Part shown: piece after piece, positions 29,180-47,554 of the stretch | How the letters are laid out: each line of letters starts with the position of its first letter | How positions within the stretch are numbered: position 1 is the first letter of the stretch | DNA from: Myxococcota bacterium | GTDB taxonomy: Bacteria > Myxococcota_A > UBA796 > GCA-2862545 | Length of the DNA: 64,000 bases | NCBI GenBank assembly: GCA_039208735.1 | Contig: JBCCQY010000038.1 | Coordinates: 1-64,000, forward strand | Direction of reading: 5' to 3' | Position numbers and translations under genes: made by a program | Notes under the pieces: model-generated | Databases searched by the model: none | The model's input: only the letters and a program-made list of their open reading frames with translations | Told to the model about the DNA's origin: nothing

Positions 29180-30979
29180 ATGTTGTACGTCTGGGCCGTG
29201 CTGTGGGGATGTCCGAAATCCACGACGGTGGCGGAGCTGGAGCCGGAGCCGGAGCCGGTGTCGCCCTTGGCCGCCGATGCGGTCCGTGGCATCGATACGC
29301 CTGTGCTGCGAACGCTGGTGGCTGACCATTGGAATTCAATGATGGCGCGGTATCCGCAGTGGGCCAATGACCTCGGGGATTCACGCTTCGCCGAGTTGCT
29401 CTACGATGATTCGCCCGAAGCCCAGAACGCCTGGCTCAGGAAGGAGCGGGATTGGGTCGTCAAGCTCGCCGCGTTCCCGGATGCCGTGCTTACGCCGAGA
29501 GATCGCCTGACGAGAGATCTGCTCCAACGCGACCTTCAGTCCTCATTGGCGGCGGTGGTCTGCCAGTTTTCGGAGTGGTCGCTTTCGGCGCGGTCCAATG
29601 CGCTGGTCTCCGCCAACTCGATGGCGGACAATCCGCGGTTGGATACCGCGGCCGATGCCCAGGCCCTGCTTGCTCGCTACCGGGCGTTGCCCCAGTCGAT
29701 TCGTCAGCAAACCGCGAACCTGAAGCGGGGGTTTGCCGAAGGTCGGGTGGGCATCGGGGCGTCGATGAAGCAGGTCGTTTCGATGTTGGACGAGCAAATC
29801 GGCCTTCCCGCAGACGAGTGGCCCATGGCCGATGCCCTGGATGCGGCGCCGACCTTTGAGGGCCGAGCGGCGTGGCGCGACGCGGTGTTGGCCACGCTCG
29901 ATCAAGACGTTCGCCAGGCTTTCGTCGATTACCGCGACTTGATTCGCGACGAACTGATGCCGAGCGGCCGGTCGGGTGACCGCGTTGGGTTGCATGCGCT
30001 GCCCGACGGAGCCGCCTGCTACGAGGCGCAGATCCAGGGCCACACCACGCTCGCGCGCACGGCCGATGAGCTTCACGAACTCGGCCTTGCCGAACTCAAG
30101 TCGATCCATGCGGAGTTTCGGACGCTGGGCAAGACGGTGCTGGGGACCGACGAGCTCGCCGCAATTTTCGAACGGTTGCGTACCGATGAAGCACTTCGTT
30201 TCAAGACATCCGAGGAGGTCCAGAAAACCGCGGAAGACGCGCTGGATCGGGCTCGTGCGGCGATGGACAAGTACTTCGGGCGGGTGCCCCAAGCGGAGTG
30301 CGTTGTGCAGCCGGTGCCGGATTACCTGGCTCCCCACACGACGATCGCCTATTACCAACGCCCGCGGCCCGATGGCTCGCGACCCGGCATCTACTACGTG
30401 AATGTCTACGCGCCCGAGACCCGTCCGCGCTTTGAAGCGGAAGTCCTGGCCTTCCACGAGTCGATTCCAGGTCACCACCTGCAGATCGCGATCGCCCAAG
30501 AGGTCGACGAGTTGCCCGCATTCCGGCGGTATGGCTCCTTCACCGCCTTTATTGAAGGATGGGCGCTGTACACCGAACGCCTCGCTGACGAAATGGAGCT
30601 CTACAGCGGAGATGCGGACCGGCTGGGGGTGCTGTCGTTCGACGCGTGGCGCGCCTCACGGCTTGTGGTCGACACGGGGCTGCACGCCAAGAGGTGGTCT
30701 CGTGAGCAAGCCGAGACGTTCATGGCCGAGAATACGCCGCTCGCCCTGAACAACATTGCGAATGAGGTCGACCGGTACATCAACACCCCAGGCCAGGCGC
30801 TGGCCTACAAGGTAGGCCAGATCGAGATTGCCAAGCTTCGCGACGAGGCTCGGGAGCGATTGGGCGAAGCGTTTGCCTACCCGGAGTTCCACGATCAGGT
30901 TCTCGAGGCGGGAGCGCTTCCTCTTCCGGTGCTTGCAGACCGCATCGAACAGTGGCTGGAGCAGACTGCATCGAATTGA
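29180..30979 (+). CDS. DUF885 family lipoprotein (putative metallopeptidase)
   Basis: LWGC lipobox-like; HESIPGHHLQ, EGWALYTE, RLVVDTGLH, EVDRY..PGQALAYKVG; GGAGG RBS. Confidence 0.85.
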   Translation: MLYVWAVLWGCPKSTTVAELEPEPEPVSPLAADAVRGIDTPVLRTLVADHWNSMMARYPQWANDLGDSRFAELLYDDSPEAQNAWLRKERDWVVKLAAFPDAVLTPRDRLTRDLLQRDLQSSLAAVVCQFSEWSLSARSNALVSANSMADNPRLDTAADAQALLARYRALPQSIRQQTANLKRGFAEGRVGIGASMKQVVSMLDEQIGLPADEWPMADALDAAPTFEGRAAWRDAVLATLDQDVRQAFVDYRDLIRDELMPSGRSGDRVGLHALPDGAACYEAQIQGHTTLARTADELHELGLAELKSIHAEFRTLGKTVLGTDELAAIFERLRTDEALRFKTSEEVQKTAEDALDRARAAMDKYFGRVPQAECVVQPVPDYLAPHTTIAYYQRPRPDGSRPGIYYVNVYAPETRPRFEAEVLAFHESIPGHHLQIAIAQEVDELPAFRRYGSFTAFIEGWALYTERLADEMELYSGDADRLGVLSFDAWRASRLVVDTGLHAKRWSREQAETFMAENTPLALNNIANEVDRYINTPGQALAYKVGQIEIAKLRDEARERLGEAFAYPEFHDQVLEAGALPLPVLADRIEQWLEQTASN

Positions 30980-31064
30980 GGCAGTCCGAACGCGTGCCTG
31001 GTCGAGCGGCCAGCGGACCTTCCGTTATGGGGCCGACATAGGCAAGGCACCCGGAGGCCGCCAG

Positions 31065-33980
31065 GTGATTTCCGACAGTCTACTGAGCGGAGAGAACGCT
31101 CCGTTTCTCGATGAGCTGTACACACGCTGGCTCGAGGACCCGAGCAGCGTTGAGCCAAGATGGCAAGCGTACTTCGAGTCGCTTCCCGCCGAGCGCACCA
31201 ATGGTGTACCGGTGGGTGAGCCGGCCCCTTACGCCCCTTCGATCTTCCACGGAAGCGGGGGAACGGGACTGGATTCAGCGGGCTCAAACCGCCAGGCGAA
31301 GGTGGTCCAGCTCATCAATGCGTACCGAGTCCGGGCTCATCTCGATGCCAAGATCGACCCCCTCGACCATCGCGAACGCCACGCGCATCCTGAACTCACC
31401 CTCGACTTCTACGGATTGTCGAACCAGGATCTCGACGCCGAAGTCGAGACGGCACCCGCCTTCGGACTTCCCGCTCGCGTGTCGCTGCGCAAGCTGATCG
31501 AACATCTGCAGCGGAGTTACTGCGGCGCGATCGGGGCAGAGTTCATGAACATCATGGACAATGCTCAAAAGCAGTGGATCCAACGCTCGCTCGAGACGTT
31601 GCCGAACTCGGCCGTGCTCAGCGAGGCCGCAGAACGGCGCGTCTTCCGAAAGCTCTGCGATGCCGAGAACTTTGAGCGGATGCTGCACAATCGTTTCCCG
31701 GGTACGAAGCGGTTCTCGCTTGAGGGCGGCGAAACGCTGATTCCTCTGCTCGACCTCGTGGTGAACTACGCGTCGCTTGAGGGGGTCGATGAGATCGTCA
31801 TCGGAATGGCGCACCGGGGTCGTCTAAACGCGCTGGTGAACATTCTCGGCAAGCCCGCCCACATCGTGGTGCGCGAGTTCGAAGGGGTGTACGGCACCAC
31901 TCAGGGCTCGGGCGATGTGAAGTATCATCTTGGTTACTCGTCGGACCAGGTCACCTTGGTGGACCGACCGATGCACATCTCACTAACGCCGAATCCTTCG
32001 CACCTTGAAGTGGTCAATTCCGTGGTGGAAGGGCGAGTGAGGGCCAAGCAACGCCGCGCTGGCGATACCGAACGGCGTCGGGTTTTGCCCGTCCTGATTC
32101 ATGGCGATGCAGCCTTTTCAGGTCAGGGTTCCGTGATGGAAGTGCTGAACCTCTCGGAACTCGACGGGTACGAGACCGGAGGCACCGTCCACATCATCGT
32201 GAACAATCAGATCGGGTTCACGACGCCTCCGGCCGAAGGGCGGTCGACCGAGTACGCCACCGATGCGGCTCGCATGCTGTCCATCCCTATCTTCCACGTC
32301 AACGGGGAGGTTCCCCGCGACGTCGCCGCGGTCACGCGGATGGCCATTGATTACCGTCAGCGATTCCGCCGTGACGTGGTGATCGACATGCTTTGCTACC
32401 GGAAGCATGGTCACAACGAAGGGGATGAGCCGTCCTTCACCCAGCCAAAGATGTATGAAGTCATTCGCAACAAGCCGAACCCGCGTCAGGTCTATGCGCA
32501 ACACCTGCAGAAGATCGGCACGTTGACCGAGGCGGATTGCGAACAGATTTACCAAGAATCCTTCGACGCCATGCAACGCGCTGCGGAACGTGCGGCGACG
32601 CCGGTGCCGGGCGAGCGGTCCACGGTCGACATGAAGCCCGGGGACCCCGACGAAGCGACCTACTCAAGGCCCACCAGCGGCCCCACCGTCGAGACCGACC
32701 CCACGGTACACAAGGCCGCGATGATGCGGGTGATGTGGTCGCGGTACCTCACGGGCAAGCTGACCGACGAAGTCGACACGCGCTTCGATAAGGACCGGCT
32801 GATCGAGCTTTTGCGGGTAGCCAATACGGTGCCGGAAGGGTTCGCGGCGCATGCCAAGATCAAGCGTTTGTTCAAGCAGCGTCAGGCCATGATCGCGGGG
32901 GAACGCCCCGTGGACTGGGCCGTGGGCGAACAAGCGGCGTTCGTCTCGTTGCTCGATGACGGCATCGGGGTTCGACTGTCTGGGCAAGACTCGGGCCGAG
33001 GCACGTTCTCTCATCGTCACGCGGTCATCACCGACATCGAGACGGGCGACGAGCGCTATCTGCTTTCAGAGCTTGATTACCGACCGATTTCTCCTGCCGC
33101 ACGGTCCGAGAACAACGGTGAACACAACTCCCGGCTGGCCGAGTTCTCGGCCATCGACAGTTCGCTGTCCGAGTTTGCGGTGCTGGGATTCGAGGTCGGC
33201 TACGCGTTCGATACGCCTGAACAACTGGTCCTTTGGGAAGCGCAGTTCGGAGACTTCGCCAATGGCGCGCAGGTCATCATCGACCAGTACATCGCCTCGT
33301 CCGAGCAGAAGTGGAATCGGTACTGTGGGCTCGTGATGTTGCTGCCGCACGGCTACGAAGGCCAGGGCCCCGAGCACTCCAGCGCCCGGCTCGAGCGGTT
33401 CTTGCAATTGTGTGCGGAAGACAACATGCAGGTCGCGAACTGCACGACTCCAGCAAGCTTCTATCACCTCTTGCGCCGGCAGATGCTGAGGTCGGTCCGC
33501 AAGCCGCTCATCGTGATGACGCCGAAGTCCCTGCTGCGGCACCCTCAGGCCACCTCGACCCTCGATGAGCTGGCCGACGGCACCTTTCAGCCGGTCATCG
33601 ATGATTCCGAGCCGCCCAAGAAGGCACGTCGCGTGGTCTTGTGTAGCGGCAAGGTCTACTATGAGTTGTTGTCCCACCGGCAGGAACACGACATCAAGAA
33701 CGTAGCGCTGGTGCGGGTCGAGGAACTCTACCCCTTCCCCAAAGCGTCGATGGACGCCATCCTCGCCAAGTACCCGAAGGCCAATGTCGTTTGGTGCCAG
33801 GAGGAGCCCCAAAACATGGGGGCGTGGCCGTACTGGCTCCAAACGTGGATCGAGATGTACCCCGACCGGAAGTTCCCTCGCTACGTGGGTCGCAAGGCCG
33901 CGGCAAGTCCGGCGACGGGGTCTCACCAACAACACCTGCGCGAGCAGAAGAAGCTCGTTGCTGACGCGTTCGCCGACTGA
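31065..33980 (+). CDS. sucA: 2-oxoglutarate dehydrogenase E1 component
   Basis: [74 protein letters not shown] before GTG 31065. Confidence 0.96.
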
Positions 33981-33997
33981 ATCGTCAAGGAGTCGCC

Positions 33998-35164
33998 ATG
34001 GTCGACGTGACCATTCCTCAGATTGGGGAATCGATTACCACCGTCTTCATCGCCCGTTGGATCAAGAAGCCCGGTGAGGCCGTCGCGGTGGGCGACGCCA
34101 TCGTCGAATTGGACTCTGACAAGGCCTCGATGGAGGTCCCGTCCCCGTCGGCCGGTGTGCTCACCGAAACGCTGGTGGAAGAGGGCGACGAGGTCGATAT
34201 CGGCAGCATCATCGCGCGGATCGACGAGACGGCAGAGGTGCCCCGTGCGCCCGCGCCGAGCGAGGAGCCGGCCGCCGCAGAGGATGCGAGTTCGGTGCGT
34301 GCGGGCCCTGCCGCCCGTCAGCAGGCCCGTCAGTCGGGCGTAGATCTCGGCGGGGTCGAAGGGACCGGTCCGCGAGGGCGCGTGACCAGCGGTGATGTGC
34401 GAGGCACCGCCACGGCCCAGGCTCCTAAGAGCGTTCGGGCGCCCAATGCCCCCTCGAGCACCCCGGGGGGAGTGGAGCGTCGCAAGATGACGCCCCTACG
34501 GCGCACCATTGCACGTCGTCTCGTCGAAGCTCAGCACAACGCAGCCATGCTCACGACGTTCAACGAGATCGACATGAGCCGGGTGATTGCCCTGCGCAAG
34601 CGCTACCAAGAGGAATTCAAGGCCAAGCACGGCATCAAGCTTGGATTCATGAGCTTCTTCGTCAAGGCAGCGATCGAAGGACTTAAAGAATTCCCAGCGG
34701 TCAACGCCGAAATTGATGGCGATGAGATCGTCTACAAGCACTACTTCAACATTGGTGTAGCGGTGAGCGGGCCCAAGGGCCTGGTCGTCCCCGTGGTGCG
34801 CAATGCGGATCGGTTGTCCTTTGCCGAGGTGGAGCTTGCCATCGCCGAGTTGGGGGCCCGCGCGCGCGACAACAAGCTGCAGCCCGATGACTTCAAGGAC
34901 GGCACCTTTACGCTGTCCAACGGAGGGATCTTTGGCTCGCTGATGTCGACGCCGATCCTCAACCCTCCGCAGTCGGGGATCCTTGGCATGCACACGATCC
35001 AGGAGCGTCCCGTGGGGGTCGACGGTCAGATCGAGTTGCGTCCCATGATGTACGTCGCGCTGTCCTACGACCACCGAATCATCGACGGTCGCGAGGCCGT
35101 GTCGTTCCTCGTCCGCATCAAGCGAGGCGTGGAGAACCCCGAGCGAATCTTGCTAGAAGTGTGA
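33998..35164 (+). CDS. sucB: Dihydrolipoamide succinyltransferase (E2)
   Basis: Lipoyl DKA motif, E3-binding [28 protein letters not shown]. Confidence 0.95.
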
Positions 35165-35219
35165 GCTTCAGCTCAAGTGCGGGGGATCTTCGTCCGATCG
35201 GACAGTCGAGGAGAGACCC

Positions 35220-35423
35220 ATGGTGCCCGACGACGATCTCAATCCGTTTTATCCCCCGATTTTTACGGCGCGTCCTCGACTTCCAGTACGGATGCGTCAT
35301 GTGGCGACACCCTTGAATCAGGCACGTCGACCCATAGGGATCGCGTCCGCTGATTCGAAGTTGGAGCCCGAGGAATCCCCGCCGCCTAAGTCGCCGGAAG
35401 GACCGACGTCCTCCACCTCCTGA
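35220..35423 (+). CDS. Small hypothetical protein (67 aa)
   Basis: GAGGAG RBS and ATG; fills gap between sucB and the OmpA gene; no recognisable motif. Confidence 0.3.
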   Translation: MVPDDDLNPFYPPIFTARPRLPVRMRHVATPLNQARRPIGIASADSKLEPEESPPPKSPEGPTSSTS

Positions 35424-35571
35424 GGTTCCGGGGACAGACCCGCGGGTTTGCCGTGCCATCGAAAGATGAAGGCGACCCTTCCTGGCGGGCATGGGGAGCC
35501 GGAGCGGCCAGTGCGGCTGTTGGTTATACAGCCGGGCCGTGTTTGGTCTCCCCGTTCAGTCAGGAGTGGAC

Positions 35572-37188
35572 GTGTCCCACAAGCCTTCATCCATCGTGAT
35601 CCGTGCTGCTTGGGCAGCCGGCGCCACCGCTGCGGTCGGCGTGGCGCAACCCGCGCTCGCCCAGACGGAGGACACCGCAGGTGGGGAATCCATCGACATC
35701 GAGCTGATTCGGCCCTCGTTTGGGCATGAGTCGTTCGCCAGCGTCGACGTCCCTCGGACCGCACGGCAGAACATTGCCCTGCGGGCGGGTCTGGTCATGC
35801 AGTACCAGCAGGCGCCGCTCACGCTTTACGATGCAGCGAGCAACGAGGAACTCGGCTCGGTCGTCGCCAACCGGTTCTCGGGCATCGTCGGGGCCTCGCT
35901 CGACATTGACCGGGTGACCTTCGGCCTCATCGTGCCCACCGCGTTCAACTTCGGAAACACCGATACGCCACAGTACGAAGCCGACGGGTTCGGCCTGGGC
36001 GACGTCGGGCTGACGGGTCGCGTCACGTGGCTCCGGACCACGAGTGACCGGTTCAACCTGGGTACGCGCGCGGGCATCGTTCTGCCGACCGGCCGCAACT
36101 TTGCCTACATGAGCGACGAAGCGCTCCGGTTCTCGGTGGGTCAGCTCGTCGCGGTCCGCGCCGGTCCCCTCACCGTTGCGACCGACATTGGCCTGTTCAC
36201 GCGACAGCGGAACGCGACCGACGAAGACTTCGTCGCGAGCACCGAGGTCACCTGGAACAGTGCCGTCCGGTTTGCGCTGCCCCAGGCGACGCGACTGTCC
36301 GTCAATGGCCAGCTCCTCGCGCGCGCCGGCCTCGACCGTTTCCTCTCGGGTCCTGCCGAAAATGGGCTTGAGCTGCTCGGTGGGGTCGACTTCTACCCGT
36401 CGCGGACCACCACGTTTGGCGTGGCCGCAGGCCGAGGGCTCTCCGCGGGCGTGGGGACGACCGACTTCCGCCTGCTCGGCAACCTGCTGGTTCAGGTGCC
36501 CGAGCGTCGCGAGCCCTACGTCTACAACCCCGAGCCGCCGCCGCCGCCGCCCCCCGCCATCGATGCCGAGGTCGAGACGATCAAGGAGATCACCGACCCC
36601 ATCATCGAGGTTGACGACAAGGGCATCACGGTCATCCGGATTCCGGAGCAGCCCAAGTTCGTGGTGGGTGAGAACATCATCCTCGAAGAGAGCCGGGGCA
36701 TCGTCACCGCAGTGGCGAACCTCATCAACACAGAGCCCGAAGTGGCGTTCGTCAAGATTGTGGGGCACGCCTCGCAGGAAGGCGACTTCGACTACAACTA
36801 CCGCCTGGCCGAGAGCCGCGCGCGGGCCATCTACGAGGCTCTGCTCGAAGACGGCGTGGCCGAACAGCGGTTGGGCTACTCGGGTCGCGGTGAGGTCAAC
36901 CCCCTCAAGGGTGGCTTCAACTACCAGGGTGACGACGAAGAAATCCTTCAGGCCAACCGCCGGGTGGAGTTCATCGTTGAGCGGCAGTTCGGGCCGGCGG
37001 ACGACATTCCCGGGCCATGCGCCGAGGGCGTGACGGTTGGCAAGGATTGCTACCCAACCAAGCAGTACCTGCCCTGGAACGGTGAAGTTGTGGATGTCGT
37101 GATTCCGTCGCAGGCGGGCCTCGACACGACGGATGTGGAAGAGGAAGGCGACGAGTTCGACGACGACTTCGACCTCGGGGAGGAGTGA
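35572..37188 (+). CDS. Outer-membrane beta-barrel + OmpA peptidoglycan-binding domain protein (TraB-like, without TSP3 repeats)
   Basis: Signal peptide (ALA-Q), amphipathic strand region, poly-Pro linker, OmpA motifs [34 protein letters not shown] before GTG 35572. Confidence 0.85.
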
Positions 37189-39539
37189 TGTTCCGCACTG
37201 CACTAGCCGCGCTCGGCCTTTTCGCGGCCGCGCCCGCGTTCGGGCAAGATGCGTTGGTCATTCACGCGACTGAGAATCCCACCATCGACGTCTCGACGGT
37301 GTGTGACTCACTTGCGAACTTCGGGTTCTTCGTGCGGTGGAGCCGTTTCGACGGCGCCGCGGGCACGCCTCCCGAGCAGCAACTGGCCGACAACCACGTG
37401 GTGCTCTTGTGGAGCGACGGCACGCGATTCGCCGAGCCCGAGCTTCTCGGGGACCGCCTTGCGGCCATGATTGGCAACGGTGGCGGCGTGGTCTTCATGG
37501 GGGGCACGCTGGCCAACGGCAGCACGCCCACGGGCGAAGCCTGGGACGCGGTGTCGCCCATTGTGCCCGGCACGCGATCCCGTACCGATACGGCCACGTT
37601 CGCCCTGCAGGCGCCGGGCTACCAGTGGTTGCAAGCGAGCCCCAACTACATTGAAGGGCACCAGAGCGTTTACGGGTTCAACAACTTCTGTGGCCGTCCC
37701 AACTGGGACCCCACAAGCCCGACCTTTGGGCAATGTACGGCCCCTGAAGGCGTGTTCCGCGTTTCGAACCTGGTTCGGAAGCAAGGCACGTTTGTGCCTG
37801 CCATCTGGGACGACAATTATCCATTGTCCATCGCGCGTGGCGCCTCGGTGCCCGGTGAAGGCCGCGTGGTCGCCCTCAACATGAACCACATGCCGTTCAC
37901 GTTGGACCTCAACGGCGACTTCATCCCGGACTACCACCCCGATGGGTGGACAGGCGATGGCTATCGACTCGTGCTTGAGTCCATGTTGTGGGCGGCGCGG
38001 TTTGAAAAGCCCCTCGCATCGCTTGAAAACCTGACGTATTTCCAGGATTACGACTGCGACCTGACCGACGTTGCACTCGATGAGCCGGTCGACCCGGATG
38101 CGCCGATCTACGGGGCCTGGGTGGACACCGATGGTGACGGTGTCAACGAAACCCGCGAGATCATTGGTACGTGCCAGGATCGTCTGAATCCCGACACGGG
38201 GACGTTCTACCCGACCGACGACAACTTCTACGACTACGAGTCGCACGGTTGCACCTACTTGGTGTCGCGCCTTGACGAGCAGGATTCGGCGTTCCACGCT
38301 CCCTTCATCGGCGATGGCCTTATCGGGCCCAACCCCTTAGGCGGGATCGCGGACCCCTTCACCGGGCTGATGCGTCCGCCGGGTGTCGTGCCCATCACGG
38401 GCCCCGATGGGCAGGGGGTTTCCTCGGCCACGCTCGAGTGCGACAACTGTACGTTCGTCTGGAACCCCGACCAGCTCGACATCGACGGCGATGACGCAGG
38501 CGACCTCTGCGACAACTGCCCGTTCCTGCCGAACCCCGACCAGAACAACATCTGTCCGGCCACCGGTTTCCCCGACGGGGACAACATCGGTGTGGTCTGC
38601 GACAACTGCATCTGTGTCCCCAATCCCAAGCAGGAAGATGCCGACATCGACGATGTGGGTGACCCCTGCGACAACTGCCCCTTCACCTTCAACCCGAATC
38701 AGGCCGACAGCGACACCTGCCCGCCGTTTGGGCTGCCCGATGGCTTGGGTGATGCGTGCGACAACTGCCCGTTTGAATGCAACCCAACGCAGAGCGACGT
38801 CGACCAGGATGGCGTGGGTGACCTTTGCGACAACTGCCCGCAGACGCCCAACCCCGACCAGCTCAACAGCGATGAAGCGTCGGAGCCCGACAACTTCGTC
38901 GAAGGGGACGCCTGTGACCCTTGCCCGTTCGATGGCAAGCTGAACTCCGAGAACACGGACGACGAGGACCAGGACGGCGTGGGCGACCCGTGTGACGTGT
39001 GCCCACAGGTGGCCGATCCGGACCAGGCGGACCGCGACAGCGACAACAATGGCGACGCCTGCGACAACTGCCCGAGCTTCTTCAACCCGGTGCAGGAAGA
39101 TTCCGATGCGGATGGCTTCGGCGATGCCTGCGACGTGTGCCCCGACATTGCGAACCCTGACCAGGCGGACCGCGATGGTGACACGGTGGGCGATGCGTGC
39201 GACGGCTGCCCGGACATCGCCGATGGCGGGGCCCCCGATGCCGACGGAGACGGATTCTCGGACCGCTGCGACCTCTGCCTGTTCGTGGCCTCCGAGACCA
39301 ACAACGACCGTGACGAAGATGGCGTGGGCGACGCGTGCGACAACTGCCCCGCCGATCCGAACCCCTCGCAGCTCGACCGTGACGGTGACGGCATCGGTGA
39401 CCCGTGCGACCCGTTCGTGCTCCGTGGGGGTGGCGCTCCCGAGCAGGGCCTCGGCTGCCAGACGGCACCGTGGTCGATGTCGGGCTTTGGTCTCGTGGCG
39501 CTCGCCGCGCTCCTCCGTCGTCGGCGGAACCGCGCGTGA
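37185..39539 (+). CDS. Surface protein paralogue 1: head domain + 13 TSP3-like repeats + MYXO-CTERM-like tail
   Basis: Signal peptide; CDNCP..N..Q.D.D.DG.GD repeats; ends LRGGG...GCQT-hydrophobic-RRRRNRA; overlaps OmpA stop (start 37185 or 37188). Confidence 0.85.
38439..39410 (+). repeat. 13 thrombospondin type-3-like Ca-binding repeats (paralogue 1)
   Basis: 13 CDxC-led acidic units counted by hand plus a closing CD. Confidence 0.85.
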
Positions 39540-41617
39540 GCTTCGCTGTGCCATCACTCCTCGCTCTGTGGCCGGGCGGACTCTTCGTGAGTGCCGCCGA
39601 GGCGCAAGAGATTGTGGTGCTGGGGTCGACCTCGCAGGTCGGCACCAACGCGCTGCGCGAGGATTTGATGTGCACGGGTGAGTTTGAAGCGGTCGATTTC
39701 ATCGACCTCACTGTACGTACGCCGACTCTCGATGAGCTTCGGCAGTACCACGGCGTCCTCGCCTTCTCCGACCTTCCTTTGGTCGACCCCGTGGGGGTGG
39801 GGAACCGCCTCGCCGACTACGTGTCATTGGGCGGCGGGTTGGTGCTCGCCGCGGGCGCCTTTTCGAGCGACACGGGACCCGCGGGTCGCTTGCGGAACGA
39901 CGATTTCATTCCGGTGGCAGATGCTCCGGTGGGTCCGGTTGCCCCCGGCAATCAGTCCATCGAGGCGACCAACGGATTTGCCTGGCTGCCCGGCGAGTTG
40001 GGACATCCCACCACCCAGGGCGTCAACGACTTCGATGGGGGCGCGGCGAGCTACCACGCCATCACCGCTGCCGCACCGGATGCCATCGTCACCGCACGAT
40101 GGGATGACGGCAATCCGGCCATCGTGCTTGCGCCAGGGTCCACGGGCGGAGTGGAGGGCGGTCGCCTTGCGGTCGTCAACGTCTACCCATTGTCCGCGCG
40201 CGTCGATCCCAACTCCTGGACGGAAGAATCCGACGGGGGGCGCCTGTTCGCCAACGCGCTGTTGTGGGCGATTCGCTACCAGCGACCTCCCGAGACGTGC
40301 GTGAACGAGGTCATCGTCCAAGATCTGGACTGTGACACGGTCGATGCGTCCGATGAGCCTCCGGTCGACTTCAGTGACCCGGTGTGTGCATCGACGCCCA
40401 CGCCCTCCGATCCCTATCCGAACGACGACTTCTACATCGATGCTGGTTCGTTTGGATGCAGCATTGAGTCTGCGCAGTTCGACATCGACGGTGACCTCAT
40501 CTCAGGCACTGGCCAGCCGCTATCGATTCCCGATCCGACCGATCCCAACATCATCTTGGTCTTTGAGTTGGGATGCGACAACTGCCCCGCAGAGTTCAAC
40601 CCCTACCAGTCCGACCTCGACTGTGACCGCATTGGCGACCTCTGCGACAACTGCCTGTACACGCCGAACGGAGCTGAGGGCACCACCAACTTCGACGAAG
40701 ACTGTTTCCCCAACGCGTGCGACAACTGCGACTTCGTCGACAACCCGCTGCAGGACGACGAAGACGGCGATGGGGCCGGTGATGCGTGTGACAACTGCCT
40801 CACTGTCTTCAACCCTGGTCAGGCTGACGCGGACGGCGATTTCGCCGGCACTGAGTGTGACAACTGCCCAGGCACGCCAAACCCCTTCCAAGAAGATGAC
40901 GACCTCGACTTGGTGGGCAGCGTTTGCGACAACTGCCCGTTCATCTTCAACCCCGACCAGTCCGATCGCGACGGTGATGGCGTGGGGGATGCCTGCGATC
41001 TGTGCCCCGACCTGGCCACGTCGAACCAGGGCGACGCCGATGCCGATTTTGTGGGCGATGCTTGCGACAATTGCCCGCTCATTAGCAACGCCGATCAAGA
41101 AGACGCCGATCGCGACGACGTAGGCGATGCCTGCGACAACTGCCCGATCTTCCTCAACCCGAACCAGGAAGATCGCGACGGTGACCTTGTGGGCGACGTG
41201 TGTGACCTCTGCCCCGAGGATGAGGATCCCCAGCAGCTCAACGTCGATGGCGACACGCTGGGCGATGCCTGTGACCCTTGCCCGACTGCATTTGATGAGA
41301 CCTTCGCCGACGCCGATGGCGATGGGATTTTCAACACGTGCGACTTGTGCACGTTCGTCGCCGACGAAACCAATGCCGATGCCGATTTCGACGGCGTTGG
41401 CGACGTCTGCGACAACTGTGTCGAACAAGCCAATCCCACCCAGGCGGACTTCGACAACGATGGTATCGGCGACCCTTGTGACCCCTTCGTCCTCCGTGGA
41501 GGCGGGGCGCCTGCTCAAGGCTGCTCCAACCTTCCGGCGACGTCCCCGGTCGGTGTGATCTGGCTGGGGTTGGCCCTTTTCCTCCTCCGCAATCGAACCG
41601 AGCGAGTTCAACGATGA
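39536..41617 (+). CDS. Surface protein paralogue 2: head domain + 13 TSP3-like repeats + MYXO-CTERM-like tail
   Basis: GTGA overlap with paralogue 1 stop; signal peptide ending AEA-Q; ends [26 protein letters not shown]. Confidence 0.85.
40574..41482 (+). repeat. 13 TSP3-like repeats (paralogue 2)
   Basis: 13 CDxC-led units counted by hand plus a closing CD. Confidence 0.85.
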
Positions 41618-44283
41618 TCGACCTCTTGAAGACAGTGAAATGGCCAGGCTTAGGGGCCTTGCTAGGGATGACGCTGCTTTCGTCGGGTACCGCCGAGGCA
41701 CAGGTCGTGGACCCAGAGTTGCTCGGGTACCGCGTTGCACTCCTCGGAGCGGCGTCCGATCCCTCATTCAACGAGGACATTCGCGACAACGTCATGTTGG
41801 GAAGCCGCGGGGTTGCTGGGGTCTACCAGATCGTCCAGGTCACGCCCTTAGGTGTGGTGTTCATCCCGAACCCGCTGGACTCCCGGCCCGGCTATGAAAT
41901 CGCGGGCGTCGACATCTTCGATGTGACCGTCGATGTCCCGCAGGTCGACGACATTCAGTCCTACGATGCCCTGCTGGTCTACAACGACGTCGCGTTCGTG
42001 AGCCCCGATGCCGTGGGTGACCTGGCGGCTGCGATGGTGGAGTTGGGCAAGCCGGTCATCTTGACGGGTGCGGCCACGGACGAAACCCTCGGGGTTCGAG
42101 GCCGGTTCGATACCCAGTCGATGTCGCCCGTTACCTACGGCTCGATCGTCAGCCCCGGAGGGAACCTCGGGGTCGTGCCCATCTCGGAAGACGACACCTG
42201 GACGACCGATACGTCCGACAACGCCATTACGGGTCCAAACATCGGGAGCTTGGTCGACTATGGCACCCAGCAGCTCGGCAACGTCGAGTTCCGGTTGCTC
42301 GGCGGCAACTCCAGCACCCACGTGCAGGGGCTGTTGCTGCGAGACCAGGCCTTCCAGGTGCACCAGTGGACCAACGGCGAGCCCGCCAACGTGTTCCTCC
42401 CGCCCGTGATCGACGGTCAGGGGGCCACCGCGGTGGCGAACTGGAATCCAGTTTCGGACGCGGTCGACGGCACGGGTTGGATTCGGCAGACCTCGGGCGG
42501 GCGGCTCCTCGCCAACGTGATCCTCGAGGCGGTGGTGCTTTCGCGCAATCCCGCCCCCGGCGACATCTACCAGCGCCCCTCCGGCTTTTGCTTCGTGGTT
42601 GATCCCGTTGCGGGACCCATTCCGTTCCAGACCGAAGGGTTCCTCGGCCAGGTGGGGGCCGACTTCTTCACCACCTGCGACTACGCGAAGCCCCAGATTG
42701 GCGGCACCCCGTTTGGCACGTTGGTTCGTTGTGCAGACGATAACTTCTGTGTCGACGCCACGGGCGATGCCACGGCATTCTGCCCCATCGTGCAGAACCG
42801 CTCGATCGAGCAGGACCTCAACTGCAATGGACTCGACGTTTCGCTCCGCAAGCAGGACGGCGATTTCTTCGAAACGCGGTTCGACCCCTTTGGCGACGAT
42901 GTCGACGACATGTGCCAGAACAACATCGACCCGCTCACCGGCCAGCCCTTCGACAACGCCGATGTGTACTTCGATTACTTCACCTTCGAGTGCGACTACT
43001 TCACGGGTGACTTCGACGTCGACGGTGACGGCCTTTCGTCGGGCACCATTACCCTGCAGCTGACGCCGGACCCCCTCACCTGGGAAACCGTCCAGCTCTC
43101 TTGCGACAACTGCCCCGACTACTTCAACCCGAACCAGTTTGACTGGGACCAGGATGGCGTGGGCGACGTCTGCGACAACTGCCCCTACGTCTTCCAGGAC
43201 CCGATGGCTCCCGGCATGCGGGAAGACTCCGATGGTGACGGCTTCGGGAATGCCTGCGACAACTGCTTCCTGGTACCCAACCCCGATCTGAACGACTCCG
43301 ACAACGATGGGTACGGCGACGCATGCGACAACTGCCCCGACCAGTTCAACAACATCTGTGGCCTCGACCAGACGCGTCCGGACTTCCTCGAACAGGAAGA
43401 TGACGACGTCGATGGCGCGGGTGACGCCTGCGACAACTGCCTGATCCGCGATGTGGACGGCGATGGGCAGGACGAAACGCCCTACATGTACCTGAACAAT
43501 CCCGACAGCGACTTCTTCATGGAGCCGCCGACGTTCGACACGCCGAACCCCTCGCAGGACGACACCGACCGCGATGGCTGGGGCGATGCTTGCGATGTAT
43601 GTCCCAATGTCATCGACCGCGATCAGGAAGACGCAGACCTCGACGGTGTGGGTGATGCGTGCGACAACTGCCCCGGCCTTTCGACGACGGTGCGGGCCGA
43701 TAGCGACCAGGATGGTCGCGGTGATGCCTGCGACAACTGCGACGACGTGAAGAACCTCGACCAGTTCGATCTCGACTTCGACGGCATTGGCGATGCTTGC
43801 GACAACTGCATCAGTGTCTCGAACGAAGAGCAGTTCGACAGCGATGAAGATGGTGTCGGTGACTTCTGCGACAACTGCCAGTTCGATGCGAACCCGGCGC
43901 AGGGCGATGCCGATGGCGATGGCTTTGGCGACATGTGTGACAACTGCCCCACGGTCTTCGACACCGATCCGCAAGACCGCGATGGTGACGGGTTCGGTGA
44001 TGCCTGCGACTTCTGCATTGACGAGGCCTCCGACGAAAACCTCGACACCGATGGTGACGGTGCGGGCGATGTCTGCGACAACTGCCCCACGGTGCCGAAC
44101 TTCGATCAGACCGATTCGGACGGCGACGACATTGGCGATGCCTGTGACCTCGTGGCCTTCCGGGGCGGCGGCGAGCTGGCCCCTGAAGTGGCGAGCTGCT
44201 CGCACACCGGTTCGGGACTCGGATTTGCCGGGTTCTTGGCATCGCTTGCCGTGGTGGGCTTGCGTCGCCGGCGAAGCGCCTAG
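41614..44283 (+). CDS. Surface protein paralogue 3: head domain + Cys-rich insert + 13 TSP3-like repeats + MYXO-CTERM-like tail
   Basis: ATGA overlap; signal peptide ending AEA-Q; ends FRGGG...SCSH-hydrophobic-RRRRSA. Confidence 0.85.
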   Translation: MIDLLKTVKWPGLGALLGMTLLSSGTAEAQVVDPELLGYRVALLGAASDPSFNEDIRDNVMLGSRGVAGVYQIVQVTPLGVVFIPNPLDSRPGYEIAGVDIFDVTVDVPQVDDIQSYDALLVYNDVAFVSPDAVGDLAAAMVELGKPVILTGAATDETLGVRGRFDTQSMSPVTYGSIVSPGGNLGVVPISEDDTWTTDTSDNAITGPNIGSLVDYGTQQLGNVEFRLLGGNSSTHVQGLLLRDQAFQVHQWTNGEPANVFLPPVIDGQGATAVANWNPVSDAVDGTGWIRQTSGGRLLANVILEAVVLSRNPAPGDIYQRPSGFCFVVDPVAGPIPFQTEGFLGQVGADFFTTCDYAKPQIGGTPFGTLVRCADDNFCVDATGDATAFCPIVQNRSIEQDLNCNGLDVSLRKQDGDFFETRFDPFGDDVDDMCQNNIDPLTGQPFDNADVYFDYFTFECDYFTGDFDVDGDGLSSGTITLQLTPDPLTWETVQLSCDNCPDYFNPNQFDWDQDGVGDVCDNCPYVFQDPMAPGMREDSDGDGFGNACDNCFLVPNPDLNDSDNDGYGDACDNCPDQFNNICGLDQTRPDFLEQEDDDVDGAGDACDNCLIRDVDGDGQDETPYMYLNNPDSDFFMEPPTFDTPNPSQDDTDRDGWGDACDVCPNVIDRDQEDADLDGVGDACDNCPGLSTTVRADSDQDGRGDACDNCDDVKNLDQFDLDFDGIGDACDNCISVSNEEQFDSDEDGVGDFCDNCQFDANPAQGDADGDGFGDMCDNCPTVFDTDPQDRDGDGFGDACDFCIDEASDENLDTDGDGAGDVCDNCPTVPNFDQTDSDGDDIGDACDLVAFRGGGELAPEVASCSHTGSGLGFAGFLASLAVVGLRRRRSA
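43102..44148 (+). repeat. 13 TSP3-like repeats (paralogue 3)
   Basis: 13 CDxC-led units counted by hand plus a closing CD; insertions in units 2, 4 and 5. Confidence 0.85.
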
Positions 44284-44293
44284 CGATCGTCCC

Positions 44294-44387
44294 GGCGAAG
44301 CCGTGCTTCGCCAGGGATGCGACGGTTATCGTTCGTGACCAGCAGACCGCCGAGCCCGAGGGTATCTTCGCCCATGGGCTCGGCGGT
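44294..44387. other. Two GC-rich intergenic hairpins
   Basis: GGCGAAGC/GCTTCGCC (44294-44312) and ACCGCCGAGCCC/GGGCTCGGCGGT (44346-44387); no clear U-tract. Confidence 0.55.
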
Positions 44388-44419
44388 TCACCGAGACTGG
44401 GAACTCCACGGAGGTTGCC

Positions 44420-46552
44420 GTGACAAGCGTGTTCGTGATGGGAGCGCTGTCGGTCGCGTGGAGCCAGCCTTATGAGGTCGCCCTCGTTGGTGCGGCCAAC
44501 GCGGACCAGCTGGAAGATGTTCGGGACCGCATCATGTGTGCGGACCGGGGGCTTGGCTACAACGACATCGTGACCCGAACCCCACGGGTGAACCATGGCA
44601 TTGAACGTATCGATCTCTTCGATGCGGCCGTCTCGACACCCACGATTGACGAGCTGGCCGACTACGACGCCATGTTGGTGTTCAGTGACTTGGCGTTTGC
44701 CGACGCGGTGTTGCTAGGCGACGTTGTGTCGCTTTTCGTGGAGTCGGGCCGTGGCGTAGTGGTCGGGGGCCGCGCGTTTGCCGATGGCTTCGCGCTACAG
44801 GGCCGCTTTCTCACCCAGGGCATGAGCCCCTTCGACACCACGGGGGTCTTGGCGCAACCTGGGGGCGACTTGCCCATTGACCCGGTGGCTGCGATCTGGG
44901 ACCGCGGACCCGAACGGGGCCACCCGATCCTCTGGGGATTCAGCGTCTTTCGAGGCGGCACCGCCAGTTTGCACACGCAAGGCGTGCTGCCTAAGGCCCA
45001 AGCCGTCGAAATCGCCCGGTGGGGCAACGGCGAGACGGCCGTGGTCGCCCTCAGTGCCCCCATTGCGGGCCAAGGGCGCATCGTGGGCTTGAATTTCAAC
45101 TTGCCCTCGGGTGAGGTCGATGCCACCTCCTGGAGCATCCAGGGGAGTGGTGGGGATCTGATGGCCCAGTCGGTGCGATGGGTCATCGGCGATGAACCAA
45201 CCGGCCTTTGCGAAAACGAAAGCCTCGGTCAGGATCTGAACTGCAACGGCATCGACTTGACCAACGAAGCGTTCATCGACATTTCGAGCGATGAGTGTCA
45301 ATCGAACGTCGATCCAGTCAGCAACGAACCCTACGATCGCAACGACTACTACTACAACTACTTGAACTTCGACTGTGAGTTTCCTGTCGTCGACTTCGAC
45401 GATGACCGCGATGGGTTTTCGTTTGGCACCATCGATTTGTTCCTGCCGGGATCGTCCATTCCCTGGGACACCGTCATCTTCGAGTGCGACAACTGCCCCG
45501 GTGCGTTCAATCCTTCCCAGATCGATCTGGGGTGTGATGAGATTGGCGACCTGTGCGATCGATGCCCTGGCGACAATGAGCCCGCCGCCGCCCAGCCCTT
45601 TTCCCAGAACGATGGGGACGGTGATTGCTTTGGCGACACCTGCGACAACTGCCCCGAGATAGCCAACAGCGATCAGCTTGATGCCGACTTCGATCTGGTT
45701 GGCGACGCCTGTGACAACTGCCCTGACGTGCCCAACCCCCCCGTGCTCGATGAACGGCTTGAACTCGTCCAGCTCGACGAAGATGGCGACATGGCGGGCG
45801 ATGCGTGCGACAACTGCCCGGGGCTCTTCAACTCCCAAGCCGACAACGATGAGGATGGCCTGGGGAACGCCTGCGACAATTGCCCCGATGTGGCGAACAT
45901 CGACCAGGCCGACGAGGACCAAGACGGCGTCGGTGATGCCTGTGACAATTGCCCAGGAATCGCCTCTTCGAATCCCTTCGACCTCGATGAGGACGGGTTT
46001 GGCGACGATTGCGACAACTGCCCGCTGGTCCGCAATGTCGACCAATTCGACGTCGACATTGATGGCGTGGGTGATGCCTGCGACAACTGCCCCACGTTTA
46101 GCAACACCGAACAGGTCGACACCGATGGCGACGGTGTGGGCGACGCTTGCGACACGTGTCCCATGGACTTCGATCCGGATCAGGACGACATCGATGGTGA
46201 CCGAGTGGGCGACCTCTGCGACAATTGCCCCTTCCAGCCGAACCAAGACCAGCGAAACTTCGACGAAGACACCTACGGCGACCGCTGCGATGCGTGCTTT
46301 GACGTAGCCAGTGAGAACAACGCCGATTTCGACAATGATGGGCTAGGCGACATCTGTGACAACTGTCGGTTTGTGGTCAACGTCGATCAGGCGGATGATG
46401 ACGAAGATGGCTTCGGCAATGCCTGTGATACCCAGGCGTTTCGCGGAGGCGGCCAGATCCGCTCCCCCTTCCGCGGGTGCGCCACCGCACCGCTCGGAGG
46501 AGCGCTGACCCTTGCTATGGGCGTGCTGTTGATTGGCTACCGGCGTCGCTAA
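44420..46552 (+). CDS. Surface protein paralogue 4: head domain + 13 TSP3-like repeats + MYXO-CTERM-like tail
   Basis: GGAGG RBS before GTG; short signal ending AWS-Q; ends FRGGG...GCAT-hydrophobic-RRR. Confidence 0.85.
45485..46429 (+). repeat. 13 TSP3-like repeats (paralogue 4)
   Basis: 13 CDxC-led units counted by hand plus a closing CD. Confidence 0.85.
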
Positions 46553-46970
46553 GCCACACCATCCGTACGTGCGGCCCAACGAGGGGTACCTCAAAGCGTT
46601 CACTTTGAACCGTCCATCCGTGCCGTTCGTAAAACGCCACCGCGTGCAGGCGGGCATTGCACCAGAGTGCTTTATGAACGTCCTGAATTCCGCGTAGCAA
46701 GGTGCTGCCGAGTCCCTGACCCTGGTGGTCAGGGTCAACCGCCATGCCTCGAAGTTGGGCGGTAGGGGTGGATCGATCGGGAAAGGGAGCCGCCATTACA
46801 CTAGCGATGGCGAGAACCCGGTCGCTGAGCGTCAGCGCATAGTGTTTCGTGGACGCGGCGTCGTCGCCCTCCCAGATCGCCGTTTCCCGCGGTCGCCCTT
46901 CGCGCAGCACGCGATGACGCAGGTCGATGACCGCCGAGGCTGGGACTTCGGTGACGAGAGGTCCACTCAC
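46515..46970 (-). CDS. GNAT family N-acetyltransferase
   Basis: [41 protein letters not shown]; 38-nt convergent overlap with paralogue 4. Confidence 0.8.
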
Positions 46971-47554
46971 TGCAGCGACCGCACGTTGAGCATGCGATCG
47001 TCACGAAAGTCCCGCTCGCGAACGGGTCGACCTTCCGGATCGAACTCCACCCACTTTCCTTCGCGTTCGCCTAGCTCGTAGCGCCCTTCGGTACGGGTTT
47101 GAGCGCTGGGGTCCCAAAAGATCCAATCACCGTCTCGCGAACCGGCCACAAAGGAACCTTCAGCCGTGCGTCGTCCGCTTGAATCGTAGGTGGTCCAAAT
47201 GCCTTGCTTTTCATCCGCACTGTAGGCCCCCTGCTCTGAAAGCTGAGCGTTGGGGTGCCAAAAGAGCCAGGGTCCTGTGCGCAGGCCCGCTTCCCAGGAC
47301 CCTTGAGACGCCTTTTCGCCGTTGGTGTGCCAGGTGAGGCTGGGGCCGACGCGGAGCACGGGGCCTACTTGCACGGGCTTCTCGCACCACGCCTCGTGAC
47401 CTTGGGGGGGCGCCAGACCGGCCGCGACCGTGCCGGCGGGGCATTGGAGGTCCGGATGGACAGGGGCTTGGCGCACTTCGGTGGGAGGAACCGGTTTGGC
47501 ACAGCCGATCGCGAGCCCACCCAAAAGCCAGACCACGCCTCGACTCGTTGCCAT
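46967..47554 (-). CDS. MORN-variant repeat (YwqK-like) lipoprotein
   Basis: AIGC lipobox-like; repeated G.W..W..NG.....G.Y..G...G.W units. Confidence 0.75.
   Translation of the reverse strand: MATSRGVVWLLGGLAIGCAKPVPPTEVRQAPVHPDLQCPAGTVAAGLAPPQGHEAWCEKPVQVGPVLRVGPSLTWHTNGEKASQGSWEAGLRTGPWLFWHPNAQLSEQGAYSADEKQGIWTTYDSSGRRTAEGSFVAGSRDGDWIFWDPSAQTRTEGRYELGEREGKWVEFDPEGRPVRERDFRDDRMLNVRSLQ

Follow-up and report, generated by a model that had tools for sequence, protein, structure and literature searches.

Whether the design of the TraA/TraB system has been rebuilt with other parts is the question raised by five consecutive genes (g1–g5) at positions 35572..46552 of a 64,000-nt window, which is contig C38 of the genome assembly of an uncultured marine myxobacterium (Myxococcota; the source genome, G000; 9.4 Mb in 288 contigs). 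To our knowledge, TraA/TraB is the one bacterial system built in this way that has been studied well; kin recognition and the sharing of membranes by social myxobacteria depend on it. The g1–g5 cassette is a real and conserved variant of the TraAB-type adhesin-plus-anchor design, which stands outside the TraA, TraB and MtsC families and is not categorically new. In this variant, the combination of a lipid-tagged stalked receptor with a barrel/OmpA protein is reassembled from other parts: the head is ThuA-like, the calcium stalk is of the animal type and strictly constant in length, and each anchor has several receptor genes. By analogy with TraA/TraB, the five products may form a cell-surface adhesion module, for which surface display, binding of the stalks by the barrel, adhesion and recognition are all predictions; we regard this functional reading as evenly balanced. 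Coordinates follow the numbering of the whole window. Related genomes are denoted G001, G002 and so on, fetched loci are numbered from L001, and p1–p4 are the paralogue types represented by g2–g5.

Architecture of the five-gene cassette

Open reading frames, their translations and the junction letters agreed with the layout given in the preliminary description of the locus, that is, five co-oriented genes of which the first four are joined by stop/start overlaps. All five genes lie on the plus strand, and the overlaps read GTGA at 37185–37188, GTGA at 39536–39539 and ATGA at 41614–41617. The first gene, g1 (35572..37188), had been taken for a signal-peptide barrel plus OmpA protein, and this assignment held. 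Its product consists of a signal peptide, a 12-strand outer-membrane beta-barrel (35692..36531, approximately residues 41–320 of the 538-aa form), a poly-Pro linker, an OmpA-like peptidoglycan-binding domain (36601..36987), a PWNGE motif and an acidic tail. The OmpA family (PF00691) was matched with 44.4 bits at a cut-off of 27.2. An AlphaFold model made from 11 orthologues (mean pLDDT 72.7) placed 12 long antiparallel strands (residues 68–309, pLDDT 70–90) before the OmpA domain, the barrel being followed by the proline-rich linker, the alpha/beta OmpA-like domain (residues 344–472) and a low-confidence acidic tail. In the region after the OmpA domain (37000–37185), all 11 aligned orthologues keep a P-W-x-G motif without variation as well as a strongly acidic tail. 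The start of g1 is ambiguous (ATG at 35491 or GTG at 35572), with the signal peptide starting at 35572.

The alignment of g2–g5 confirmed that the four proteins share, in this order, a signal peptide, a head that is homologous though divergent, a Cys-rich neck holding the invariant QD..C linker, a repeat stalk and a tail with Cys, hydrophobic and basic parts. In g2 (37185..39539, p1 type), the signal peptide is followed by the head (37242–38018), the neck (38019–38438), 13 thrombospondin type 3 (TSP3) repeats (38439–39422) and the sorting tail (39423–39536). The corresponding parts of g3 (39536..41617, p2 type) are the head at 39602–40294, the neck at 40295–40573, 13 TSP3 repeats at 40574–41494 and the tail at 41495–41614; a longer open frame of this gene starts at 39404. 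The g4 gene (41614..44283, p3 type) has its head at 41725–42561, a long neck at 42562–43101, 13 TSP3 repeats at 43102–44160 and the tail at 44161–44280, and g5 (44420..46552, p4 type), which begins with a short signal peptide, has the head at 44468–45205, the neck at 45206–45484, 13 TSP3 repeats at 45485–46441 and the tail at 46442–46549.

The placing of TSP3 repeats on the partner proteins instead of on the anchor, also claimed previously, was borne out by Pfam: TSP_3 (PF02412, cut-off 25) scored 61.0 bits in g2, 86.6 in g3, 74.6 in g4 and 89.3 in g5, and no TSP_3 was found in g1. Each of the four stalks carries exactly 13 CDxC motifs with a period of about 23 residues, and Asp makes up about one quarter of the stalk residues. 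The g5 stalk matched COMP (3fby) at E 2e-34 and thrombospondin-2 at approximately 3e-33, both of which have been solved as Ca-bound type 3 repeats. Calcium binding by the stalk repeats can be strongly inferred from the conserved motif. Compared with the type 3 repeats of thrombospondin and COMP (3fby, 1yo8, 2rhp), the g5 stalk keeps the DxDxDG..D.CD.C pattern, whereas the proteins of the cassette are bacterial, predicted to be lipid-anchored and lack the C-terminal lectin-like domain.

RGGG and one Cys are invariant in the tails of g2–g5, which further share a hydrophobic stretch and terminal Arg; the g3 tail aligns as well, and the same tripartite Cys/hydrophobic/basic tail is also present in relatives. 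Scanned alone against the two MYXO-CTERM models (TIGR03901, cut-off 20; TIGR03382, cut-off 15.85), the tails scored 19.4 and 15.2, respectively, for g2, 20.0 and 17.0 for g4, and 13.0 and 16.2 for g5, and the g3 tail matched neither model. The earlier assignment of MYXO-CTERM tags to all four proteins was thus upheld for the tripartite tail but, at the level of curated cut-offs, only for g4 and g5 and not for g2 and g3. The source genome possesses a gene for myxosortase (NF040914, Mrt_core, 121.2 bits at a cut-off of 100; C62:36705-37013), and 25 of its TIGR03901 matches pass the cut-off.

Relation to TraA/TraB and other known systems

The top NCBIfam match of g1 is TraB (NF033763; 111.6 bits, E 2.4e-32), at a score that misses the family cut-off of 700. 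The match is split into model positions 8–334 (55 bits) and 388–512 (55.7 bits), and the skipped positions 335–387 are the TSP3 segment of TraB. In a pairwise BLAST comparison with a TraB-type protein of another Myxococcota genome, which itself scores 612 bits to the TraB model, g1 was 24% identical over 476 columns (E 2e-18). This alignment is colinear from the first conserved motif through the end of the OmpA domain, the only large gap is at the TSP3 repeats, and the poly-Pro linker of g1 stands opposite the DxDxDG repeats of the TraB-type protein; g1 is therefore a TraB homologue minus the TSP3 linker. As judged from the alignments, g1 is homologous to TraB-type proteins end to end, yet it is not TraB by the family cut-off. 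No TraB above the cut-off was present in the source genome or in the 201 Myxococcota genomes sampled.

In TraA, a signal peptide precedes a variable head that resembles PA14, a stalk of Cys-rich repeats and a MYXO-CTERM tail, and in TraB a barrel is followed by TSP3 repeats and an OmpA domain (PMC3325183; PMC6372800; PMC12045341). The traA and traB genes overlap in one operon, and adhesion and exchange require both proteins; of these two functions, only exchange depends on the OmpA domain. The cassette resembles the M. xanthus pair in combining, within an overlapping operon, a barrel-OmpA partner with a surface protein made up of a signal peptide, a distal head, a disulfide-rich stalk and a Cys/transmembrane/Arg tail. 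It differs in having two to four receptor genes per barrel where TraAB has one, in the GATase1/ThuA-like head in place of the PA14 head of TraA, in the TSP3 stalk in place of TraA's own Cys-rich repeats and in the poly-Pro stretch of g1 where TraB has TSP3. The identification of the locus as true TraAB was rejected: the TraB cut-off is missed, the head is not PA14 and g1 has no TSP3 segment.

MtsC (MXAN_1334, NF047638) is another TSP3/MYXO-CTERM protein, for which a function in cell–cell cohesion, S motility and development is cited in PMC11980579; its role is also treated in PMC12475490. It shares with g2–g5 the TSP3-type repeats and the MYXO-CTERM tail and is their top NCBIfam match. However, true MtsC is a headless protein of about 455 aa with a single CDxC, and in L048 and L049 its gene precedes three others, which encode about 720 aa each, and has no barrel gene beside it. 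True MtsC was found in 17 of the 201 sampled Myxococcota genomes, with none among the 13 belonging to the family of the source organism. Orthology with MtsC was rejected since the matches are below the cut-off and confined to the repeats and the locus is different.

Literature searches did not find a characterised operon of this composition. Within the source genome itself, four other MYXO-CTERM proteins are paired with overlapping TraB-like barrels in the traA-traB order (C47:56431-59543; C9:67182-71563; C72:38138-41919, minus strand; C1:14853-17770). The tailed proteins of two of these pairs gave sub-threshold matches to the repeat regions of CglD and MtsD, and a family named TraA was not returned when the four MYXO-CTERM proteins were scanned, no TraA HMM having been applied. 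Hence, the proposal of an undescribed system stands in respect of this particular composition but not of the general design, which is known and whose MYXO-CTERM plus TraB-like barrel pairs are common in this genome.

The head domain

The heads of g2–g5 are homologous to each other, with head-versus-head tblastn E values from 3.8e-37 (g5/g4) to 2.5e-7 (g5/g2). They gave no Pfam match to PA14 even at E up to 10. The Pfam matches obtained were DUF4350 (E 0.057) and ThuA (E 0.16), both for g3 only, and with 12.6 bits the ThuA match (PF06283) did not reach the cut-off of 33.4. The best score for the head in the ESM Atlas was 0.78, which is below the usable level. A profile search of the PDB returned nothing credible: the top rows were nanobodies at E 0.005–0.2, with 3rht at E 0.14. 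The nanobody rows were discarded as chance matches to a Gly-rich stretch.

A structural model of g5 residues 1–360, made from a 17-row alignment, was confident at residues 17–260 (pLDDT about 90) and poor in the neck. Aligned with VIA-align, the modelled head superimposed on 3rht with Z 21.0 and an rmsd of 2.3 Å over 202 residues, followed by 2gk3 (Z 20.4), 3soz (Z 19.9) and the ThuA-like 1t0b (Z 19.0); classical amidotransferases gave Z of about 15. In the model, the fold of the head is class I glutamine amidotransferase-like and nearest to ThuA-like/GATase1-like proteins. The preliminary remark that the head does not look PA14-like was correct, as both Foldseek and VIA-align led to this GATase1/ThuA-like fold. 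With the ThuA/GATase1-like proteins (3rht, 2gk3, 3soz, 1t0b), the head has the same fold at an rmsd of 2.3–2.7 Å over about 200 residues, but the identity is 14–16%, and the head is predicted to be extracellular, is mounted on a stalk and is without conserved catalytic residues. True amidotransferases have a catalytic Cys-His-Glu triad. Across 31 aligned heads, the invariant columns are four Gly and one Asn only, and no Cys is conserved, so the amidotransferase triad is absent in the heads.

A profile search of 1.84 billion representative proteins detected 4037 relatives of the head at E<=0.001, 2959 at E<=1e-10 and 820 at E<=1e-30, many of them with several copies of the domain. The apparent rarity of the head in a word-indexed search (14 matches besides self) was a limit of that method. 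A Pfam scan covered 17 of 150 listed members of this family (P0021-P0170), picked for varied length. Several of the 17 are giant secreted multidomain proteins with ASH/HYDIN-type Ig-like domains, S8 or C25 peptidases, CARDB, Laminin_G_3 or a T9SS tail, in which the head-like parts gave only weak matches to ThuA, DUF7408 or DUF4350; five had no Pfam family whatsoever. As far as these profiles show, the head is a member of a large extracellular domain family that is mostly not covered by Pfam, and revealing this family is among the outcomes of the analysis.

The fold of the head also suggests a different function for the cassette, namely surface nutrient capture, in which the ThuA-like heads would be stalked enzymes or sugar-binding modules and the g1 barrel the uptake channel for their product. 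Besides the nearness of the fold to ThuA-like/GATase1-like proteins, this agrees with the presence of related domains in proteins with S8 and C25 peptidases and with the properties of the g1 barrel, which resembles the COG4313 channel 4rl8 (Foldseek E 1.6e-9, TMt 0.70) and weakly matches Phenol_MetA_deg (PF13557; 17.6 bits, below the cut-off of 22). Moreover, many MYXO-CTERM proteins are predicted hydrolases, as stated in PMC11980579. However, the 31 heads have neither a Cys nucleophile nor any invariant polar residue except the one Asn, and the Pfam link to ThuA is the marginal one of g3. The conserved cassette, inspected in the window and in ten related loci, has no transporter or catabolic genes, and an OmpA domain together with a fixed 13-repeat stalk would be unexpected in a simple uptake system. 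We consider nutrient capture unlikely.

Conservation, paralogue types and possible function

Matches to the head were found in 18 of 40 relatives, comprising 17 of the 24 genomes of the same family and one of the 16 from other families of the order. In 15 of the 18 head-bearing relatives, one to four head genes stand in tandem immediately behind a gene for a g1-like barrel, with which they share contig and strand; the three exceptions are one highly fragmented genome and two with weak matches. The ten loci fetched (L001-L010) all have a barrel-OmpA gene, which is followed by two to four genes with a head, 12–13 repeats and a Cys/TM/Arg tail. The sucB gene is upstream in four of the ten (L001, L002, L006, L007), and the other six, including L003 and L008-L010, differ in their flanks. 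Since the flanks differ between lineages, the cassette is maintained as a unit.

A scan of species representatives, for which the barrel alignment was used (g1 as a single query returned no related loci), yielded 31 loci; these partly coincide with the ten mentioned above, so that neither set is independent of the other. The barrel is immediately followed by one head gene or more in 22 of the 31 loci, five are interrupted by a contig end, and four have enough downstream DNA but no head gene. Exactly 13 CDxC motifs occur in 39 of the 46 complete head proteins in these loci. The co-occurrence of the OmpA-barrel and paralogue genes that had been predicted for relatives is thus seen across genera, and chance clustering of barrel and head genes is excluded by this synteny. 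In comparison, the proposed number of four receptors per anchor is valid for this genus but not elsewhere, where it varies from two to four. According to their titles, the 31 loci derive mostly from metagenome-assembled genomes (MAGs) of Myxococcota, Myxococcales, Deltaproteobacteria and Proteobacteria, with a few other labels, and one is not marked as a MAG. Six titles (L011, L013, L025, L032, L034, L035) name Enterobacteriaceae, Enterobacterales or Klebsiella, and these labels look wrong because of the gene content and kinship of the genomes.

Two of the four loci without a head gene, L034:8881-14969 and L039:6266-12252, contain more distant g1-like barrels, behind which two or three genes encode products of about 440 aa that have no head but carry TSP3 repeats (9–11 CDxC) and a MYXO-CTERM-like tail. 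Because such headless variants exist, the head looks like a modular addition.

In a maximum-likelihood tree of 35 heads, four well-supported clades corresponded to gene positions 1–4 in G000, G001, G002 and partly G016. At a deeper, weakly supported split of the tree, the first genes of two two-gene cassettes fell on the side of positions 1 and 2, and their second genes on the side of positions 3 and 4. In a second lineage (L003, L008-L010), the heads form two position-specific types of their own. Outside the cassette, the source genome has four further head modules, two on C2, one on C48 (p1 type) and one on C173, and none of them is beside a g1-like barrel, so a barrel is not needed beside every head copy. 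The module on C173 (C173:17202-20019, L059) belongs to a p3-type gene that is truncated by the contig end; its head shares 64% identity with that of g4. A FadL/TodX-type barrel gene (PF03349, E 1.5e-17) precedes it at a distance of about 120 nt. A paralogue of g1 itself (31% identity) was located on C93 (517-6746, L057); the TSP3-repeat protein encoded behind it has 1637 aa and does not end in a MYXO-CTERM-like tail.

The two modules on C2 (C2:154748-158959, corresponding to L056:749-4960) form one open frame of 1403 aa with two complete sets of head, 13 repeats and tail, whereby the first tail (RGGG, Cys, hydrophobic stretch, RARRS) runs directly into the second signal peptide. The same two-module layout was found in G001:C9 (1388 aa; L061:1006-5172) and G002:C233 (1646 aa; L062:456-5396). 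Its presence in three genomes led us to reject an assembly artefact. Throughout the three genomes of the genus, p2 is the paralogue type closest to the first module and p4 the one closest to the second, and this conserved fusion is indirect evidence that p2-type and p4-type paralogues act together. Taken with the position-conserved clades, the p2/p4 fusions indirectly support a heteromeric arrangement. A related case is MXAN_5598, which has an internal tag and then a barrel-OmpA part, as described in PMC11980579. It resembles the two-module frames in its mid-protein sorting tag with a further exported module behind it, but in these frames two putative adhesin modules are fused and not an adhesin to a barrel, and the genes of the window are separate. 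The natural fusions could be used for studying the processing of internal sorting tags.

The head modules that have no barrel beside them also bear on a dedicated export function, in which the g1 barrel would be not an anchor but an outer-membrane translocon threading the unfolded acidic stalk proteins outward, as FapF does for amyloid subunits. Indeed, FapF (5o68) chains were matched by the g1 barrel in Foldseek at E 2.5e-9 to 5e-9 with TMt up to 0.71, the barrel gene heads the operon, with translational coupling to the putative cargo genes, and the co-occurrence of both is strict in most relatives. The 12-strand barrels of the COG4313 channel and FapF (4rl8, 5o68) are similar to the g1 barrel in size and topology, although at an identity of 11–14% and without the Pro-rich linker and OmpA domain that g1 adds. 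Export is nevertheless quite improbable, as the four modules at three loci of the source genome are without a nearby g1-like barrel and the OmpA domain would be left unexplained. In addition, the published route of MYXO-CTERM proteins includes processing of the tag by myxosortase and requires the type II secretion system (T2SS) for surface localisation (PMC11980579), and the homologue TraB is dispensable for TraA to reach the outer membrane (PMC12045341). That the stalk proteins form a Ca-binding surface layer or spacer, which stabilises the outer membrane without any specific ligand, is the least probable of the alternatives: although the Asp content, the 13 repeats per protein, the constant stalk length and the plentiful TSP3 proteins of the source genome (84 repeat matches) would suit it, the folded heads are conserved in position-specific clades, the fusion is conserved in three genomes, and the headless variants make the head a separable, selected addition.

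Under the TraA/TraB-like reading, all five proteins would be exported by Sec. The g1 protein would insert in the outer membrane, with its OmpA domain likely binding peptidoglycan across the proline-rich linker. Myxosortase would likely cut g2–g5 at the tail Cys, with lipidation there, and the type II system would then likely bring them to the surface, as published for M. xanthus TraA. The 13 Ca-loaded, disulfide-braced TSP3 repeats would keep the GATase1/ThuA-like head, which would be non-catalytic, at a constant distance from the membrane. Probably acting in pairs of two paralogue types, the heads would bind to the matrix or to adjacent cells through a ligand there, for which a glycan and another head are both conceivable. 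The lipid-anchored stalks would be linked to the cell wall through the barrel, a function that has been proposed for TraB with respect to TraA.

A number of results weigh against the TraA/TraB-like reading. As mentioned, g1 stays below the TraB cut-off, only two of the four tails (g4 and g5) reach a curated MYXO-CTERM cut-off, with g3 matching neither model, and the additional head modules of the genome lack a neighbouring barrel. The gene order is reversed relative to traA-traB. The match of g2–g5 to the MtsC model amounts to 163.8–203 bits at a cut-off of 350 and consists of repeated matches to positions ~60–130 only. The nearest solved folds of the g1 barrel are channels and a polypeptide exporter, which are compatible with other roles. 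Between the congeners G000 and G001, the heads are 65–67% identical, compared with 78–81% for the stalks, 82% for the barrel and 79% for sucB; the heads evolve moderately faster than the rest and are not hypervariable or strongly polymorphic. Finally, the deeper split of the heads into positions 1+2 versus 3+4 has weak support (79/89).

A more far-reaching version of the adhesion reading is that of a second, independent TraAB-type system of cell–cell recognition in a family of uncultured marine myxobacteria that lacks canonical TraB. Receptors of two kinds, A and B, with a hitherto unrecognised extracellular ThuA-like head, would pair on calcium stalks fixed at 13 repeats, be tied to the wall by a TraB-like barrel and determine the distance between cells or the choice of partner. 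This version we find doubtful. If it were true, the in-frame A-B precursors would represent sorting-tag/signal-peptide junctions as a general route to surface proteins in fixed ratios. If adhesion or recognition as such were true, the cassette would offer a handle on the social behaviour of uncultured marine Myxococcota.

On one side, the cassette is flanked by sucA/sucB (30828-35164), and on the other by a MORN-repeat gene and two amidohydrolase genes. Consensus scans for promoters and terminators in 35000-47200 gave no excess over shuffled sequences (1 vs 1.6; 8 vs 8.1). The fourth and fifth genes are separated by a spacer of 136 nt on the plus strand (44284..44419), for which two strong hairpins are predicted; the fold of 44281-44425 has a free energy of -77.6 kcal/mol (z -4.97), and none of 200 shuffles was equally stable. 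The hairpins are without a T-run and may serve as an RNA-stability or attenuation element.

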